This document shows positions 34,092 to 44,580 of a DNA stretch of 47,611 nt, piece after piece (positions within the stretch are counted from its first letter, which is position 1; every line of letters begins with the position of its first letter). The notes below the pieces were generated by a model, which had not been told where the DNA came from, made no database searches, and saw nothing but the letters and a program-made list of their open reading frames with translations. Source of the stretch: Escherichia phage vB_EcoS_swi2. Made by a program: the position numbers and the translations under genes. The stretch is from the sequence record NC_054649.1; one strand, given 5' to 3'.

Positions 34092-34117
34092 GCCCTCGAA
34101 TGAGGGCTTTATTTTAT
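34090..34117. terminator. Bidirectional terminator hairpin
   Basis: agccctc gaat gagggct followed by TTTATTTTAT. Confidence 0.55.
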
Positions 34118-35538
34118 CGCCTGCGCCGGATTAGCATTCCACTACCGCGCTGAACTATATGGTCATTAAGTGCGTAACGAACCGCGTCCCAATAGTGGTT
34201 GTATGCATCAACAATATCAGTCAGCACATTCCCTGTCAGCTTATCAACTTTGTAGCTGTACATTACCGCCTCATTCTGCATCTCCTTGCATCGCTCATGA
34301 ATGATGATGCTGTCACAGCCACGCAGCCACGTTACACCATCCTCAACGCTTCCCGGCCATTTCGTGCACGGGTGGATATCGAATCCAGAACGCTTGATGT
34401 GACTGATGGTTTCAGGTCGAGCGCAGTCGGCATACCATCGTGCGCGCTTAGCCATCGGGAATGATTGCTCCATCGCAGCCGGTGTATCGGTAATCTCAAG
34501 CCCCACCTTGCCGTACTCGCGATTAATATAAATGTTGCGCCGCCCACCTGGTAACTCCTCGATGTAAACCTCAACCATCGCGGTAGGGTCCGTGCTGAAT
34601 CCGAAGTCCATCCCGAAATATGGGCCATGCCATTCAGGTTTGACCTCGAAGTTATCAATTCGCCACTTGCCGCCGAAGACCTGTTCGTCGCTACGCTTGT
34701 TGAACTTGCCTTCCCATATCCACATGTAGCGGTCGAAATCGACGCGCTTCATTTGCTCCATAGCGGATGGCAACGGCGTATCCCAGAACCACGGGTTGTC
34801 TGAATAGTTACATTCGATAATCAGAATTTCATCATTTTCGAAGATGCCATCAACCATCTGTGAGTGATAGGGGGCAATCCAGTTTTTCCATGTGGGGTCT
34901 GTTTCCTTGTTTGGGTTGAATGAGCACCACAGTTCGGAATTGGCAGCACGGATGGTAGGCACAAGAATATCCCAGCTTGTCTGGCTGACGTTCTCTGCTT
35001 CCTCTACCCAACCGACGGTAATCCCAGCAAAACCCTTAACTGTAGTCTGATTGCGATACAACCCCTTAAAGCGAAATTTGGCCTTAGTCTTTTTGTGTGT
35101 TATCTCGTTGTTGATAACGCGAAACTCTGCCGATTCACCCTTGCGGGCTATCTCATCAACAAGCTCCTGATAGCTTGAGTCTTCAATGGATTGCTGAATC
35201 TCACGAAAACAGGCAAAGCGGTCAGGGCGAAACCTTGCGCGCTCAGTGAGTATAGTGATAATCGTTCTTGTCTTGCCTGACCCGCGGCCACCGTAGATAA
35301 ACTTGAATCGTTTTGGGTAAAGCAGGCGCTCCAGTTTTGCGGGAATCAGGTGGTCAGCATGAGTGGTTGCATTTGTCACGTCATCAACGCCAGTGGCGGT
35401 CATCCTTAGCCGTTTGATGACGTTTTTCTGTATGTCGCAGATGCCAAAAATGGCTGACTCGGCGACATCTGTCATTTCATCATCAATCTGCGCTTCCAGC
35501 TTTTCGATTGCCAGCGCGGAGAGGCGTTTACGAGCCAT
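34114..35538 (-). CDS. Terminase large subunit
   Basis: Walker A YGGRGSGKT near N-terminus, 474 aa, position upstream of portal. Confidence 0.85.
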   Translation of the reverse strand: MARKRLSALAIEKLEAQIDDEMTDVAESAIFGICDIQKNVIKRLRMTATGVDDVTNATTHADHLIPAKLERLLYPKRFKFIYGGRGSGKTRTIITILTERARFRPDRFACFREIQQSIEDSSYQELVDEIARKGESAEFRVINNEITHKKTKAKFRFKGLYRNQTTVKGFAGITVGWVEEAENVSQTSWDILVPTIRAANSELWCSFNPNKETDPTWKNWIAPYHSQMVDGIFENDEILIIECNYSDNPWFWDTPLPSAMEQMKRVDFDRYMWIWEGKFNKRSDEQVFGGKWRIDNFEVKPEWHGPYFGMDFGFSTDPTAMVEVYIEELPGGRRNIYINREYGKVGLEITDTPAAMEQSFPMAKRARWYADCARPETISHIKRSGFDIHPCTKWPGSVEDGVTWLRGCDSIIIHERCKEMQNEAVMYSYKVDKLTGNVLTDIVDAYNHYWDAVRYALNDHIVQRGSGMLIRRRR

Positions 35539-38257: not shown

Positions 38258-38286
38258 AATCTACATCAACGATGATTCTACGTCAA
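38258..38286 (-). promoter_or_regulatory. Sigma70-type promoter on minus strand, TTGACG-N17-TAGATT
   Basis: Minus strand reads TTGACGTAGAATCATCGTTGATGTAGATT; drives leftward early genes. Confidence 0.6.
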
Positions 38287-38292
38287 CAGCAA

Positions 38293-38675
38293 GTTACCCA
38301 AATAACGCAAAATCCGGTAACTCGGAACATAAAAACCGGTAACTGTTACAAATCAATTACTTATGTTGTTTTATACCATTTTTGCCATTAAAAAGTTACC
38401 GGAGTTACCGGTCGTCCGGTAACTTGAAACCCGCGAACAGCAAGGCTCTCAGGCGAGTTACCGGATTTACCGGGTAACTCCTTACATATATAAAAGGGTT
38501 GAATTTCTTATTATATATATGATTTATAAGCATTTTATTCAATTTTGATACAAATTCTCATTTTTGAAATTTTTATAGACTCATATGCAAAAAATCCGGT
38601 AACTCCGGTAACTCTATATCTATCAGTAACTTGCATCGGTAACTGATCGGTAAAAACCCGGTAACTCCGGTAACT
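38293..38675. repeat. Iteron array: at least 12 copies of CCGGTAACT / AGTTACCGG in both orientations flanking an AT-rich core (putative origin or operator region)
   Basis: Copies at 38314, 38336, 38395, 38403, 38416, 38456, 38471, 38596, 38605, 38637, 38658, 38667 plus variants; AT-rich about 100 bp at 38485-38590; no ORF. Confidence 0.7.
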
Positions 38676-38715
38676 ACTGTAAAGATGTGTAAGTTAGAAC
38701 GTTATCTTGCTGTCG

Positions 38716-38744
38716 TTGACGTGTACATAATATTCATGTATATT
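38716..38744 (+). promoter_or_regulatory. Sigma70-type promoter TTGACG-N17-TATATT for rightward replication operon
   Basis: -35 38716-38721, -10 38739-38744, AAGGAGGA RBS and ATG at 38770. Confidence 0.55.
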
Positions 38745-38769
38745 TTTTACATCACAAAAGGAGGACTGA

Positions 38770-39048
38770 ATGTACCCAGATGGCACTAAATTAATGTTTG
38801 CATACGAGCTGTTATCTTCAATGAAATCTGGAGAACTGGTTGGTATTCACTTCGAGAATGAATACTCAAGCGAAATAATCAAAGGAGAAAAGGAAAATTG
38901 CTGTTGTGTAGTGATCGATGAAAAGTACCGCATGACGCACAACATGTTCAGGTCTTACTGCACCAGAATAGCCAATGAACAAGGTATGGTCATCAAAACA
39001 AAAACCAGTGAAAGCAAAAAATTCATGTATATCTGGAGAGTCCTCTGA
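38770..39048 (+). CDS. Hypothetical protein, first gene of rightward operon
   Basis: 92 aa ORF with strong RBS. Confidence 0.45.
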   Translation: MYPDGTKLMFAYELLSSMKSGELVGIHFENEYSSEIIKGEKENCCCVVIDEKYRMTHNMFRSYCTRIANEQGMVIKTKTSESKKFMYIWRVL

Positions 39049-40676
39049 TGACTGATTCAAAGCAAATCATTGAACTAAAGGAATCTCTTAAGCCAACAGG
39101 TAAGCCTGATTCTGGAAATCCACTTGATGAAATTGACGTGCCAGAATTCCGTGAAGGATACAAAATTCCTCCTGGCTCTCTTGGTGAATTCATGTGCGAG
39201 ATAGAGAATCATTTTGAAAATCGCGAAGAAGGAGAGGTATACCGATTGCCGGGTGCTATCGCGCTTGCTCAGGTGATGGCTGGCAGATACATCATTGGCC
39301 CAAGCGCAAAAAACAAGTGTGCGACGGGGACATTTATTGTTGGTCGATCTGGCGCAGGTAAGGGTGCTCCATCTGATTTTGTTAAGGCTTACGCAGAGAA
39401 TCTTGGAATAACTCCTCGCGTATCAAAAAGCACCGTAACATCATTGCGACAAATCAAAGAACGACTAATTGAGGCTGATGGTTTCTTGCTTTATATCGCA
39501 GATGATTGTCCTGAACACCTTCAGGCTTGGTCAGATACGCGCTCACCGCTTGGTGAAACAGCTTCATGGTTCAGGACGTCGATTAGTGGTGACTGGTTCC
39601 CTGAGTCTCCTGTCGTTACATTGTTTCAGGAGAAGCTGGCTAGTGCTCAAAACCCGAAGTTAATACTCTCTGCTGCGCAGGCTCAGGGGTGGATGATACC
39701 TCGCATAGGTGAATCTGATGGCGCTATAGATTATCGCAGACTTGCGAAAATGAACCATGATATTGGAAGAAGATTAAATCACGCCATGCAATGTTATGAC
39801 CTGTGCATTAACGAGAAGGGAATACAGAACGTAAGGTTCATTCCTTTCATAACTGTTACCCCAGAACAGGGGATTGCAACAGTAAGGAGATGGGAAAAGG
39901 ATGGCGGCATGGGCAGATCTCTTTTCATTAAAGGCCATGAACACATGCCAGAACTTAAGAATACTCCTGACATGGAAATCAATAAAACAATAATAAACGA
40001 ATGGAAACCAAGAATTCCAGGTGGATTCTTTAATGTGGAATATGCAAATGATGGCGTTTCGAAATACTATGAGATGTTGCGCAGGCGCATAGATAAGTCA
40101 AGCAACATTCCCGGTGTAATTGGTAGCGTCGGCCCTCGCTCTGCTCAGATGGTTATTGAGCTTGCGACTCTTTGCGCTTTTGCTGACTTATCATCGCGCA
40201 ATGGCATGACTCCGCAGATAAGGGAATGCCATATTGAATGGGCGTATGCAACAGTAATGAACAGCATGTACGATCTGCGTGATTATCTGGAGGGAGAAGC
40301 AGAGTTTGACGGACTTGAAAACACTGAGTGGGACAACATTGTTATGAAGGTTAAAAAATGCATTGAATCAAAGGCTTTCGCTGAAAAGCCTTATATTTCA
40401 GTGGTAAAAAACAAACTTTGTCGCGACAGAATCAGTAAGATAATTTCCGCCGCCGATTCAAACTCAATTCAGGTTACGCCGGATAAATTTACTTACGAGG
40501 TCATCATTGCCATCTCTGAAAACAGGCATTCACCAATAGAGCTTGACCCAGAAAATCCATCCAATATCCGGCTTTCTGGTGGCGGTTCATGGTCTGGGTT
40601 GCGGATGAACTCATCAGTCAGGAATATCCTGTCATCAGCAATGAAGCGAATGAGATTTATGAGGAACTTGAAATGA
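39048..40676 (+). CDS. P-loop NTPase, putative replication initiator or helicase-type protein
   Basis: 542 aa; Walker A-like GRSGAGKG; located next to putative origin and primase. Confidence 0.45.
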   Translation: MTDSKQIIELKESLKPTGKPDSGNPLDEIDVPEFREGYKIPPGSLGEFMCEIENHFENREEGEVYRLPGAIALAQVMAGRYIIGPSAKNKCATGTFIVGRSGAGKGAPSDFVKAYAENLGITPRVSKSTVTSLRQIKERLIEADGFLLYIADDCPEHLQAWSDTRSPLGETASWFRTSISGDWFPESPVVTLFQEKLASAQNPKLILSAAQAQGWMIPRIGESDGAIDYRRLAKMNHDIGRRLNHAMQCYDLCINEKGIQNVRFIPFITVTPEQGIATVRRWEKDGGMGRSLFIKGHEHMPELKNTPDMEINKTIINEWKPRIPGGFFNVEYANDGVSKYYEMLRRRIDKSSNIPGVIGSVGPRSAQMVIELATLCAFADLSSRNGMTPQIRECHIEWAYATVMNSMYDLRDYLEGEAEFDGLENTEWDNIVMKVKKCIESKAFAEKPYISVVKNKLCRDRISKIISAADSNSIQVTPDKFTYEVIIAISENRHSPIELDPENPSNIRLSGGGSWSGLRMNSSVRNILSSAMKRMRFMRNLK

Positions 40677-40954: not shown

Positions 40955-40982
40955 AAAACCCTCCGATTGGAGGGTTTTTGTT
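40955..40982. terminator. Bidirectional terminator hairpin
   Basis: aaaccctcc gatt ggagggttt followed by TTTGTTAT. Confidence 0.6.
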
Positions 40983-41934
40983 ATCTGATGACTGACATTT
41001 TCTCTATCAACTCGCCAGCGTCATAAATCTTTCTCCTGATTCTCTTTGCCATCCTGATTGTGTCAGCATCATCAGGTAGCATCACCGGAAGGCCTGCATT
41101 CTCTGCGGCGCACAGCTCGTCGAATTTATAATTAACTATGCAGCGTAACCGTGCTTTCGTCTCATCGCTAACAGAACGCACCACTTCCCACATGTTTTCC
41201 GGTGACCAGCAGCACCAGACATGGGCGCCAGTGAAGTAATGGCATTTCCACGCATCGGCATAATCAGATGCCAGGTAAATGAACTTTCCGTTGTCTTCTC
41301 CGATTGGACTTATCGCTCCGCGCGTGAGCTTTCCGTTGATAGCTGAGTCTTTGTTGTATCCAGCACGGAAAAACGTTCTGAATAAATCACCATCCATGCC
41401 AATGAATGCCACGTTGCACGGCTTCATTGTGTCAGCGCGCATCATCTCAACCGCAATAAGCTCTCCAGATTTACCTCTGGTGACATTAACGTCGCAACCA
41501 ATACCATTTATCAATGTCCACTCATTCATCGCGACACGCGTCGTTTTGGCCATGATTGCTGCGACTTCCTGCTCGGTGATGAAGTTATCGTTGTAATTTA
41601 TCTTCGGCAACTCCTTCCTAATTGCCTCCAGCTTTTCACGCGGGTGCATATTCAGGAATCCACCAAGTGCCTCCAGTGCTTCGGGAAAGCTCATGCCTGA
41701 AAGTTTCATCAGCCAGTTCATGCCGCTACCGGAACCGCACTGATTGCATATTGCGCCGCCGTCGCCTTTTGTTTCGAAGTTGTCATCGAAGCGATACCTG
41801 TCTTTTCCTGAGCATGACGGGCATGGCTGATGCTTGCCATTGAAAACTCTGCTATCCACATTGACGATAGACATGATGGCGGCTTGCCAGTTGCCAAGCA
41901 TTTTTGGCTCAATGTCTTTCCAGTAGTATCTCAT
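40981..41934 (-). CDS. Putative DNA primase with zinc-binding motif
   Basis: CPSCSG...CNQCGSG zinc-ribbon near N-terminus; start at MRYYW with AGGAAG RBS. Confidence 0.5.
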   Translation of the reverse strand: MRYYWKDIEPKMLGNWQAAIMSIVNVDSRVFNGKHQPCPSCSGKDRYRFDDNFETKGDGGAICNQCGSGSGMNWLMKLSGMSFPEALEALGGFLNMHPREKLEAIRKELPKINYNDNFITEQEVAAIMAKTTRVAMNEWTLINGIGCDVNVTRGKSGELIAVEMMRADTMKPCNVAFIGMDGDLFRTFFRAGYNKDSAINGKLTRGAISPIGEDNGKFIYLASDYADAWKCHYFTGAHVWCCWSPENMWEVVRSVSDETKARLRCIVNYKFDELCAAENAGLPVMLPDDADTIRMAKRIRRKIYDAGELIEKMSVIR

Positions 41935-41946
41935 AAAATCTTCCTG

Positions 41947-41975
41947 TTGACTGTGATGTAGAATCATTGTAATTT
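41947..41975 (+). promoter_or_regulatory. Sigma70-type promoter TTGACT-N17-TAATTT
   Basis: Contains conserved GTGATGTAGAATC spacer motif. Confidence 0.45.
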
Positions 41976-41981
41976 ACTCAC

Positions 41982-42026
41982 ATGAAACAATCAATCGTTA
42001 CTTGCAATGAAACAATTAATCGTTAC
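41982..42026 (+). repeat. Tandem 20-bp direct repeat ATGAAACAAT(C/T)AATCGTTAC x2
   Basis: Copies at 41982-42001 and 42007-42026, 19/20 identical, 5 nt apart, immediately downstream of promoter. Confidence 0.7.
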
Positions 42027-42041
42027 AATAGAGGATAAGAA

Positions 42042-42194
42042 ATGGCTATCACCGTTAAGAAGTGCGAGGTTTGCGGAAATGAGTTTATCGGAACTGCAAA
42101 AGCAAAATGTTGCTCAGGAAAGTGCAGATTGCGCAAGCACAGACAGAAGAAAAACCCAATTCATAACTCAAAAACAGATAATGGAATATCTTGA
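42042..42194 (+). CDS. Small zinc-ribbon protein
   Basis: 50 aa ORF with C-x2-C ... CC-x3-C; GAGGA RBS; overlaps HNH start. Confidence 0.35.
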   Translation: MAITVKKCEVCGNEFIGTAKAKCCSGKCRLRKHRQKKNPIHNSKTDNGIS

Positions 42195-42654
42195 ATATAA
42201 CCCTGAGACTGGTGTTTTTACAGCTGCAAAAACACATGGAACACTCTGGCGTAAAGGCAAGATTGTTGGGCATAAGAATAAGGCAGGGTACATCACCATC
42301 ACGCTACTGGGAAAACTAAGGAAAGCTCACAGGCTGGCATGGATTTATGTTTATGGAGAAGATATAGATGGGTATGAAATAGACCATATAAATGGTGACA
42401 AATCAGACAATAGAATTTGCAACCTTAGGATTTCTAGTCACCAACAAAACATGTTCAACATGAAAAAGAAATCAACAAATAAATCTGGTGTAAAAGGTGT
42501 GCATTTCGATAAAGGGTGCAACAAATGGAGAGCGCAGACATCAATAAACAAGAAGAGGGTTCATCTTGGTTTGTTTGACACCATAGAATCAGCAGAAAAG
42601 GCGATTCGTGAATTCATGGTTGCTAACCATAAAGAGTTTATTAATTTAGGGTGA
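42181..42654 (+). CDS. HNH homing endonuclease with AP2 domain (paralog of 12995..13486)
   Basis: AHRLAW...EIDHINGDKSDNRICNLR and SGVKGVHF...NKWRAQ motifs; track ORF starts upstream at 42007 without RBS, so internal ATG preferred. Confidence 0.75.
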   Translation: MEYLEYNPETGVFTAAKTHGTLWRKGKIVGHKNKAGYITITLLGKLRKAHRLAWIYVYGEDIDGYEIDHINGDKSDNRICNLRISSHQQNMFNMKKKSTNKSGVKGVHFDKGCNKWRAQTSINKKRVHLGLFDTIESAEKAIREFMVANHKEFINLG

Positions 42655-42657
42655 GTT

Positions 42658-44580
42658 ATGCATAAGATAGACAAAATGATTTCAGAGATTGACATTAACT
42701 TGCTGAAATCCTGCTTGGATACTGGTGATATCGAGCCAAGACCATATCAGTGGTTGATATATAAGTTAACTGGTGATGTGATCCGCCATTATGTTGGTCC
42801 AAGCTATGTAACAGCAAGCGTCGGTAGCGGAAAGTCACTGATGATTGCCATGATAGCAAAGCGTTTTCAGGAAATGGGATATTCAGGGATGATTTTATCA
42901 AGACAGGGCGAAATAGTGGAGCAGGATGCGGAAGAGCTATGGTCGTTTGGTGTTAGAAACTCGCTATTCAGTGCTTCGTTAGGTAGGAAAAGTTCTACGT
43001 ACCCAATAATCTGTGGTTCTGAGGGTACTGTTGTAAATGCTTTGTTTGATAAAAAGGATGGGTCAGGGAATGTTATTGCAAAAGGTGTGCTCTCTGACTT
43101 TTGCCCAAGATTCCTGCTGATCGATGAAAATCATATGGTTAATGACATTGATGTTGTTAATAATGGTGATACGCAGTATGCAGTGATAATTAATGAGCTA
43201 ATGAAAAGGTGCAAAGATAAGCACGGCCATGAGTTGAGAATAATAGGTTATACAGGCTCACCGTTTCGCGGAACTACATCAATAAAAGGCGCTTTCTGGA
43301 AGAAAGAGATTATCAACATAGACACCAAGTACATGGTTGAAAACGGTTTTCTTGTACCAACAATTTTTGGTCTTCATGATGTTGATAGTCTGCATTATGA
43401 CCTTTCAGATTTTCATGGTTCAGATGTTGATGGTACTCAGGACTTTACCGCCGAGCAGCTCAAGCAGATGCAGAAAGAAATTCTTGAGCAAGGTACGTTG
43501 ACGCAGAAAATCATGCTCAAGGTTATGGAATTGACTAAAAACAGGAACGGAGTGCTAATTACATGTGCTGGTAAAAAGCATTGCCAGGAGGCGGCAAAGT
43601 ATTTGCCTGAAGGAAGTTATTCAATAGTTACAGAAGATATGGGGTCAAAAGCCAGAAGGAAGGCTCTAAAAGATGCATACACCGGGCGCAAAAAATTCAC
43701 ATTCCAGATAGCTGCCCTTACCACTGGCGTAAATATACCGTTATGGGATACGAGCTGCATATTGCGAAAAATAATGTCACTCACTCTTCTTGTTCAGTTG
43801 CTTGGTCGCGGGATGCGCCTGCTGAAGAAAGAGCAAATTGATGCCGGGTATCATAAAGAGGACCATCTGGTTCTTGATTTCTCTGGCACGATGTTTGAGC
43901 TTGGTCAGCTATATGAAGACCCAATCCTTGAAGAGGCTGAAGCGCAACGTTCAAAACGCAGTGGTGAACAAGTTCCGTGCCCGAAATGCGGAACAATGAA
44001 CAGCCCATATGCGCGCCGCTGCATTGGCAAAGATGCATTGTCGCCAGATGGTAGATGCGAAGAGTTTTTCAGTTATATCCGTTGCGGTTTCGACAAACAT
44101 GGCATCCGTATTTTTGATGATGGATGCGGCACTAAAAACGACCCCACTGCGCGTTATTGCCGACATTGCGATCATGTTTTGCGCGACCCGAATGCGGCAC
44201 TTAATGAGCGTGCGTATACAGATAATGAGTGGGCTGATGTTATGGATTTCAAAGTCCAGTTAACGAAGGATGGAGAAGGTATTTTGTATCGCTACTGGAT
44301 TAATCGTTGTGATGGCAAAGAAGGCTGGGCTAACGAAGTTTTCTACCCTTATGGCGGCGCAACTCACATGAAAAACATGTTTAAGGCAAAGGCGGTCTTT
44401 CCTCACCTTGATGATAAGTCAATGGCGGGGAAGATCCTGAAATGCCAGAACGCCAAGCAATTCATGATGTATGCGGGATTGATTAAAGCGCCAAAACGCA
44501 TCACGCATCGAATTAATGATAAAGGTCGCGACATAATACACCGCAAAGAATTTAAAGGGGAACAAAGTGAAGCAGCTTGA
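42658..44580 (+). CDS. Superfamily 2 helicase with C-terminal zinc ribbons
   Basis: Walker A VGSGKSLM, DExH-like LLIDENHM, later motifs, Cys-rich C-terminal region. Confidence 0.7.
   Translation: MHKIDKMISEIDINLLKSCLDTGDIEPRPYQWLIYKLTGDVIRHYVGPSYVTASVGSGKSLMIAMIAKRFQEMGYSGMILSRQGEIVEQDAEELWSFGVRNSLFSASLGRKSSTYPIICGSEGTVVNALFDKKDGSGNVIAKGVLSDFCPRFLLIDENHMVNDIDVVNNGDTQYAVIINELMKRCKDKHGHELRIIGYTGSPFRGTTSIKGAFWKKEIINIDTKYMVENGFLVPTIFGLHDVDSLHYDLSDFHGSDVDGTQDFTAEQLKQMQKEILEQGTLTQKIMLKVMELTKNRNGVLITCAGKKHCQEAAKYLPEGSYSIVTEDMGSKARRKALKDAYTGRKKFTFQIAALTTGVNIPLWDTSCILRKIMSLTLLVQLLGRGMRLLKKEQIDAGYHKEDHLVLDFSGTMFELGQLYEDPILEEAEAQRSKRSGEQVPCPKCGTMNSPYARRCIGKDALSPDGRCEEFFSYIRCGFDKHGIRIFDDGCGTKNDPTARYCRHCDHVLRDPNAALNERAYTDNEWADVMDFKVQLTKDGEGILYRYWINRCDGKEGWANEVFYPYGGATHMKNMFKAKAVFPHLDDKSMAGKILKCQNAKQFMMYAGLIKAPKRITHRINDKGRDIIHRKEFKGEQSEAA

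Follow-up and report, generated by a model that had tools for sequence, protein, structure and literature searches.

A conserved repeat array around an AT-rich core as the probable replication origin of the Skate-like phage vB_EcoS_swi2, paired with an MCM-like helicase

Phage DUF3987 proteins are divergent superfamily 6 (SF6), MCM-related helicases with a winged helix-turn-helix (wHTH) at the C terminus, and are encoded beside archaeo-eukaryotic primases (AEP) or DnaG primases (Kazlauskas et al. 2016, PMC4889955). Helicase activity has been measured for one of them, AgaPH (PMC11724360), and these two papers describe no origin for DUF3987 helicases. Among the pathogenicity islands of Staphylococcus aureus (SaPIs), SaPIbov1 Rep/Rep2 is MCM-like (SF6), while Rep1 and PriRep5 belong to superfamily 3 (SF3) (PMC9371898, PMC7581432). 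Here we analyze a locus in Escherichia phage vB_EcoS_swi2 (sequence record NC_054649.1; its 47,611 nucleotides are called the window throughout), which has a Skate-like siphophage genome. No replication origin is described for Skate-like phages in the literature open to search. In the window, a non-coding stretch of about 390 bp holds about 16 copies in total of a short repeat, surrounding an AT-rich core. We consider it probable that this array, at positions 38290-38675, is a replication origin, and that the 542-aa protein encoded downstream is both its origin-specific initiator and the replicative helicase. A preliminary description of the sequence had proposed an origin made of iterons and a DNA-unwinding element, a reading now favored by the recurrence of the layout in relatives, the covariation of repeat and protein, cassette exchange, selection on the repeat cores and an unstable center.

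The repeats are concentrated in the array far beyond expectation. The exact 9-mer CCGGTAACT occurs ten times, against an expected count of 0.09, and none of 100 shuffles reached ten copies. Every copy lies in 38314-38675, with none in the rest of the window, where the preliminary description had raised the concern that it might be frequent. The 7-bp core GGTAACT is found 19 times in the window, 13 of them within the 384 bp of 38292-38675 and six in the other 47.2 kb. The preliminary count of at least 12 copies thus holds only if near-copies are included, and on the same basis so do its claims of both orientations and frequent adjacent pairs.

Copy orientations run - + + - - + - - + through the left cluster and + throughout the right one. 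The outer left repeats (38290-38344) are a degenerate TGGGTAACT (38290-38298, -), which abuts the -35 hexamer of a leftward promoter, and two CCGGTAACT copies (38314-38322, +, and 38336-38344, +) spaced 22 bp apart. A left triplet in the order - - + follows at 38394-38424 (38394-38402, -; 38403-38411, -; 38416-38424, +). The inner triplet (38456-38479) borders the AT-rich core and consists of AGTTACCGG (38456-38464, -), ATTTACCGG (38465-38473, -, one mismatch) and CGGGTAACT (38471-38479, +, one mismatch), the outer two copies forming a 7-bp inverted repeat. Across the core, the right cluster (38596-38675, all +) is built from tandem pairs at 38596-38613 and 38658-38675, 62 bp apart. Between them lie the one-mismatch copy TCGGTAACT (38636-38644) and two weaker, degenerate copies read in the sequence, TCAGTAACT (38623-38631) and TCGGTAAAA (38647-38655). 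A 62-bp spacing of paired repeats, about six helical turns, occurs on either side of the core (left, 38394 to 38456; right, 38598 to 38660 and 38607 to 38669), and is not strictly kept in relatives.

The core is the most extreme sequence of its kind in the phage. This candidate DNA-unwinding element (38480-38595) contains (TA)n runs and is 81% AT, compared with 54% for the window. It ranks first for AT content among all 116-bp stretches of the 47.6-kb window, and the window's least stable 50-mer by nearest-neighbor stability, 38501-38550, falls inside it. The two clusters do lie around an AT-rich stretch, as had been claimed for 38485-38590. Directly 5' of the inner triplet is a GC-rich box (38444-38455, +; GGCTCTCAGGCG) with a family consensus of approximately GGCTTGCAGAGG. 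The GC box, followed by the - - + triplet and the start of the (TA)n run, is the best-conserved part of the array across the family. The box is constant across repeat types, with equivalent sites in the relatives we label L002-L005, L007, L010 and L013, and it may be bound by a conserved factor or act as a signal for priming or loading.

Two sigma-70-type promoters found by consensus scan face outward from the array at the positions first proposed. The leftward one (38258-38286, -; TTGACG-17-TAGATT) is conserved in sequence in Skate, HC6, Bas77, L007, L009, L011 and L013. The rightward one (38716-38744, +; TTGACG-17-TATATT) drives an operon of a small gene and the helicase gene, with a ribosome-binding site AAGGAGG at about 38757-38763 (+). 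A promoter-like sequence occupies the same position in L007, L008, L011 and L013. The region was described as lacking an open reading frame (ORF), and is indeed overlapped only by mechanical TTG ORFs of 85 and 45 aa.

The placement of the array between divergent promoters, with its leftmost degenerate copy against the leftward -35 hexamer, could mean that the repeats are an operator array and nothing more, through which the 92-aa product of the small gene or the ATPase regulates both promoters, while replication starts elsewhere or by recombination. Iteron-based autoregulation is common in plasmid systems, and the PDDEXK nuclease and AAA_24 recombinase-like protein also encoded nearby could support recombination-dependent replication. 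However, the repeats overlap neither the -35 and -10 hexamers nor the transcribed leaders, and the copy nearest the rightward -35 ends 40 bp upstream of it. An operator would also leave without a role the 116-bp least-stable core, which is kept in position in every relative.

A sensitive blastn search of 38287-38770 against 50,697 phage records returned no match, so relatives of the array were reached through the 542-aa protein. In all, 17 loci were compared, with upstream regions read in 12 relatives as well as Skate and HC6, and L020 and L028 assessed by core positions only. At every locus read, the sequence upstream of an MCM-like/DUF3987 helicase gene contains repeat clusters around an AT-rich core some 80-200 bp long; the core between clusters was mapped in ten loci, and in HC6 by eye. 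The repeat sequence itself is not constant. CCGGTAACT is shared by L008 (whose protein is 60% identical), L011 and L020, and GGTAACT is mixed with GGTAAAAC in L007 and L013. GGGAACT is the repeat of VR6602, BUCT541 and L009, CCGGTAAA(A) that of Bas77, Bas81 and L010, and TAGTAAA that of KLB16, whose protein is 33% identical. Skate and seszw, with a very distant DUF3987-type helicase at the locus, have TTATCCC, and HC6, with a canonical DUF3987 helicase, has CGTGGGG. Six repeat types pair with six protein variants across the 17 loci, and the repeat changes when the protein changes. Several types are a single base step apart (GGTAACT, GGGAACT, GGTAAAA, AGTAAA).

The Skate array (L001 2234-2694) is made of TTATCCC(G), of which TTATCC is common to the DnaA box, and the HC6 array (L016 8356-8778) of CGTGGGG/CCCCACG; each flanks its own AT core.

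Array and helicase gene are also exchanged together. To the left, as far as 38288, identity to Salmonella phage Skate, seszw and E. coli phages HC6 and C1 is 90-94%, and nucleotide homology to HC6 and Skate stops at 38288, where the array region starts. Compared with HC6, identity is about 92% up to 38288 and resumes at 40668, with no nucleotide similarity between. These breakpoints indicate that the array, the small gene and the helicase gene were replaced as one unit, the exchangeable cassette at 38289-40667, with the leftward promoter at its left edge. We tentatively raise the possibility that array and MCM-like initiator-helicase form a self-contained, orientation-independent replicon cassette, exchanged among Skate-like enterobacterial phages by recombination at the leftward promoter and the helicase 3' end.

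The same pattern bears on whether the array might serve packaging (pac), partition or some other function in cis that has nothing to do with replication. The pac site of P1 is one of those built from short repeats around a central region. However, the repeat type tracks the helicase gene, with which the array is exchanged, and not the terminase; the terminase large-subunit gene (34114-35538) is about 2.7 kb from the array here, and in KLB16 the distance is about 5.6 kb. We saw no partition genes. Because repeat type goes with the helicase gene and not with the terminase, we reject pac, and give this whole group of functions next to no chance of being correct.

In one lineage the array has turned around. 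The GC box and triplet unit lie on the opposite strand in VR6602 and BUCT541, and these two phages and L009 have their unidirectional cluster on the opposite side of the core. Relative to the flanking genes, the array is therefore inverted, with its internal order kept. The promoters did not move with it, which is hard to reconcile with an operator, and the constant genetic partner of the array is a homologue of a replicative helicase and not a known regulator. The absence of hexamer overlap, an unstable core without a role and inversion between the promoters together make an operator-only function unlikely. The preliminary description had kept this alternative in view, and a secondary regulatory role is possible; as sole function it is further disfavored by KLB16, which lacks the small protein.

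Selection on the repeats can be seen in L011, whose array is 91% identical to that of the window. Differences fall at two of 91 core positions compared with 75 of 340 positions elsewhere (Fisher p = 5e-7). As judged from this sequence comparison, the repeat cores are under purifying selection while the spacers drift.

Which protein reads the repeats is a separate question. The array could be an origin at which the 92-aa protein is the sequence-specific binder and recruits the MCM-like helicase, in the manner of lambda O/P or plasmid Rep/DnaB. This protein (38770-39048, +; function unassigned) is the product of the first gene of the rightward operon and part of the swapped cassette, a homologue is present in every relative read except KLB16, and Bas77 and Bas81 carry two paralogues. 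KLB16 is the difficulty for this proposal. It has kept the array and the helicase gene, with the primase 10 kb away, and no 92-aa homologue was detected in its whole 44.9-kb genome (hidden Markov model E > 0.9). From this gene content, the constant partner of the array is the helicase gene, and not the small gene or the primase. In addition, a winged helix is present in the helicase itself, as it is in DUF3987 proteins and SaPI Rep (PMC4889955, PMC9371898).

Published CRISPR genome-reduction mutants of seszw, in which known essential genes were excluded from targeting (PMC9825161), provide a further comparison. The seszw cassette is identical to that of Skate, and all the listed mutants have retained the helicase gene and the complete array (PMC9825161). 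In the smallest genome (36.0 kb) the cassette has lost only a small ORF (Skate locus 2705-2886), and the array has five point changes and no deletion. This small ORF occupies the position of the 92-aa gene, and its deletion in viable mutants also counts against a necessary role for a small protein as binder. We regard recruitment through the 92-aa protein as doubtful, with a low chance of being right, and favor recognition of the repeats by the helicase itself.

The 542-aa protein (39048-40676, +) was identified by fold comparison alone, as an MCM-like AAA+ helicase (SF6, DUF3987-related) and the proposed initiator-helicase. Its C-terminal part contains a winged helix (about residues 445-510), and a basic helix (522-540) forms the tail. 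Walker A reads GRSGAGKG (residues 99-106; window 39342-39365) and Walker B LLYIADD, and K105, D153 and R290 are invariant in the family. Neither Pfam (E <= 0.01, including PF13148/DUF3987) nor NCBIfam gave a match, the sole PHROGs match was to the C-terminal part of phrog_3022, 'DNA primase', and nothing in the PDB was matched at sequence level by the protein, its family profile or its C-terminal domain. Comparison with SaPI Rep and Cch likewise showed neither homology in sequence nor close homology in structure. The family is rare, with 11 clusters in a 5.8-billion-protein collection and 88 matches in a profile search over 1.84 billion cluster representatives. When the distant profile matches were compared with Pfam, P0027 scored above the DUF3987 gathering score and two others below it, and three begin with a Prim-Pol, PriCT_2 or NrS-1-type domain. 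These fusions and DUF3987 matches fit the published description of DUF3987 proteins, with which the 542-aa protein shares the MCM-like ATPase fold, the C-terminal wHTH and a primase neighbor.

The proteins at the more distant loci extend this picture. The 495-aa protein of Skate (gene at L001 2916-4400) is a distant homologue in the ATPase core only (hhalign 96%, residues 39-444), its C-terminal part being unaligned. The HC6 protein at the same locus (L016 6587-8137) is a full DUF3987 member (Pfam 1.3e-34) with the Walker A sequence SAGKT (GKT), and single-sequence hhalign found no detectable relation between it and the window family. Within the family, the proteins of different repeat classes diverge at positions 482-483, in the predicted third helix, and in the KNKLCRDR segment (454-461). 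These differences agree with a role in repeat recognition, and are confounded by phylogeny. In Bas77 and Bas81 the helicase is shorter by about 40 N-terminal residues. Database records often label the helicase 'hypothetical' or 'primase', and the AT core of the array a 'hypothetical' or 'membrane' protein.

We propose the following model for initiation. Host RNA polymerase would transcribe the rightward early operon from 38716-38744. The MCM-like AAA+ protein would then bind the GGTAACT repeats, probably via its C-terminal winged helix, and the helicase would assemble to the left and right of the AT-rich core. The contrast between a mixed-orientation left cluster, with its box and triplet, and a unidirectional right cluster would give the origin an internal polarity. 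The (TA)n-rich core (38480-38595) would melt, possibly helped by negative supercoiling behind the diverging transcription complexes, and the helicase would load itself as a ring, without a separate loader. The neighboring DnaG-type primase would prime, and host DNA polymerase III would extend. The host enzyme is proposed because no DNA polymerase was found among the proteins scanned, which cover the window to the right of its first 28 kb. Occupancy of the leftmost copy, beside the leftward -35, may also modulate early transcription.

Several points weigh against this reading or limit its support. Repeat binding, melting, self-loading and origin activity are proposed by analogy with SaPI Rep/ori. 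The covariation of repeat and protein is confounded by phylogeny, and amounts to about six independent repeat types rather than 17 observations. Walker A is GK-G in all close relatives and GK-D (GGKD) in Skate, not GK-S/T, and without the usual Mg2+-binding Ser/Thr the ATPase competence of the protein is not assured. The predicted recognition helix (478-490) is fairly hydrophobic and the C-terminal domain differs only modestly between GGTAACT and GGTAAAA phages, so assignment of the binding domain is tentative. In the seszw mutants, known essential genes were spared from targeting, making retention of the helicase gene weak evidence, and the Skate small ORF is not homologous to the 92-aa protein. 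Finally, the GC-skew analysis suggested in the preliminary description places the cumulative minimum in the 38-39 kb bin, in agreement with an origin. It is confounded by gene orientation and was set aside as independent evidence, as the array sits where the direction of transcription and genes switches.

In the wider neighborhood, the P-loop protein (39048-40676) and the nearby primase and helicase genes named in the preliminary description are all present. A DnaG-type primase with a zinc ribbon and primase core (40981-41967, -) adjoins the cassette and is a probable partner in initiation. An SF2 helicase is encoded at 42658-44580. Between the two genes lies one for an HNH endonuclease with an AP2 domain (42007-42654). 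In relatives a homing-type HNH gene may occupy this position, lie elsewhere or be absent, a pattern that suggests a mobile insertion. Pfam and NCBIfam scans of the neighboring proteins found no homologue of O, P or a DnaB loader. Bas81 (L004 1982-2510) and Bas77 (L005 1918-2450) encode a 96-aa orthologue of the 92-aa protein and an extra protein of 76-79 aa, which from its sequence looks like a distant paralogue of it.

Searches for other elements in the array gave little. There is no Rfam match at E <= 1, no DnaA box within one mismatch and a single GATC. One match to the IHF consensus (AATCAATTACTTA, 38351-38363, +), the only one in the array, lies in a spacer between repeats and is tentative; IHF-like matches were noted by eye in the arrays of L007, L008, Bas77 and Bas81, and L011 has no conserved match.

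Inside the arrays and AT cores of relatives, ORFs are annotated in public records as 'putative membrane protein' or hypothetical: L001 2293-2532 (CPT_Skate_081), L003 1802-2137 (UAW06822.1) and L005 1375-1697 (Bas77_0083, 0082). These ORFs are probably spurious. In the seszw mutants, single-base indels break the frame of the Skate_081 ORF and the DNA is kept.

A scan of IMG/VR for the tandem 18-mer AGTTACCGGAGTTACCGG returned 20 contigs, and of these L020 alone has a homologue of the 542-aa protein (99% identical); L028, a 47.3-kb contig, has a similar array (1.2 kb read). The 18-mer clusters of L026 (5050-5750) and L029 (5540-5900) are collagen-like Gly-Val-Thr coding repeats in long ORFs, probably of tail-fiber genes, and are irrelevant to replication. 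The presence of AGTTACCGGAGTTACCGG in unrelated viral contigs is a trap for pattern searches with the repeat.

The Skate-like group includes many candidates for biocontrol and therapy against Salmonella, E. coli and Klebsiella. Knowledge of the origin and its initiator would aid genome engineering by defining which DNA must stay in cis, and an origin-initiator cassette would explain the mosaic break at this locus. The phages also offer a natural allelic series of repeat/initiator pairs for the study of DNA recognition and origin melting by bacterial-virus MCM-like helicases. If the replicon-cassette reading is correct, at least six natural specificity types exist, and BASEL phages Bas77-81 would be a model tractable in E. 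coli. Such a model could show how an MCM-type ring helicase recognizes and melts a defined origin and loads itself there when ORC, Cdc6 and Cdt1 are absent, and what effect replicon type has on competition when phages co-infect. Iterons, an unwinding element and a self-loading helicase are already known from SaPIs, and to a specialist the combination is expected rather than surprising. Some added value lies in a natural series of swappable origin-initiator cassettes around an MCM-like helicase in culturable E. coli phages.

Parts of this arrangement can be recognized in several well-known systems. In SV40 and the papillomaviruses, large T and E1 are self-loading AAA+ initiator-helicases that act at opposed short repeats around a melting region, between divergent transcription units. 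They are, however, SF3 helicases of eukaryotic viruses with an N-terminal origin-binding domain, and are not homologous to the protein described here. The lambda origin and the iteron plasmids (RepA/RepE/pi) share initiator-specific repeats beside an AT-rich unwinding element, possible transcriptional activation, and specificity types that are swapped between related phages. In lambda, however, ori lies inside the O gene, with four 18-19-bp dyad-symmetric iterons on one side of the AT-rich sequence, whereas the present array is intergenic; the lambda initiator is not itself a helicase, and P serves to load host DnaB.

The satellite phage P4 has an alpha protein that is an initiator-helicase, bears a C-terminal DNA-binding domain and recognizes TGTTCACC-type iterons, which are short repeats. 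Alpha is a primase fused to an SF3 helicase, unlike the separate DnaG-type primase found here. P4 also needs a second repeat cluster, crr, several kb away, and in the window neither the 9-mer nor the 7-mer forms another cluster.

The closest functional analogue is SaPI Rep/ori, although the system described here is not a member of that group at the sequence level. SaPI origins also consist of 6-12 short repeats in two sets, in both orientations, around an AT-rich center (PMC9371898, PMC7581432). As in our proposal, the SaPI initiator is the AAA+ replicative helicase, with a C-terminal winged helix that reads the repeats, and it works without a separate loader (PMC9371898, PMC7581432). A primase gene adjoins, and the specificity of repeat and Rep varies by element (PMC9371898, PMC7581432). 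There are several differences. First, the SaPI ori is directly downstream of rep, whereas the array lies upstream of the helicase gene, between divergent promoters. Second, SaPI repeats are 5-6 nt long, compared with a 7-nt core in a 9-nt unit here. Third, SaPIs are satellites in Staphylococcus aureus, and the phage studied here is a virulent-type siphophage of a Gram-negative host. Finally, the phage locus has a conserved GC box and an extra small protein.

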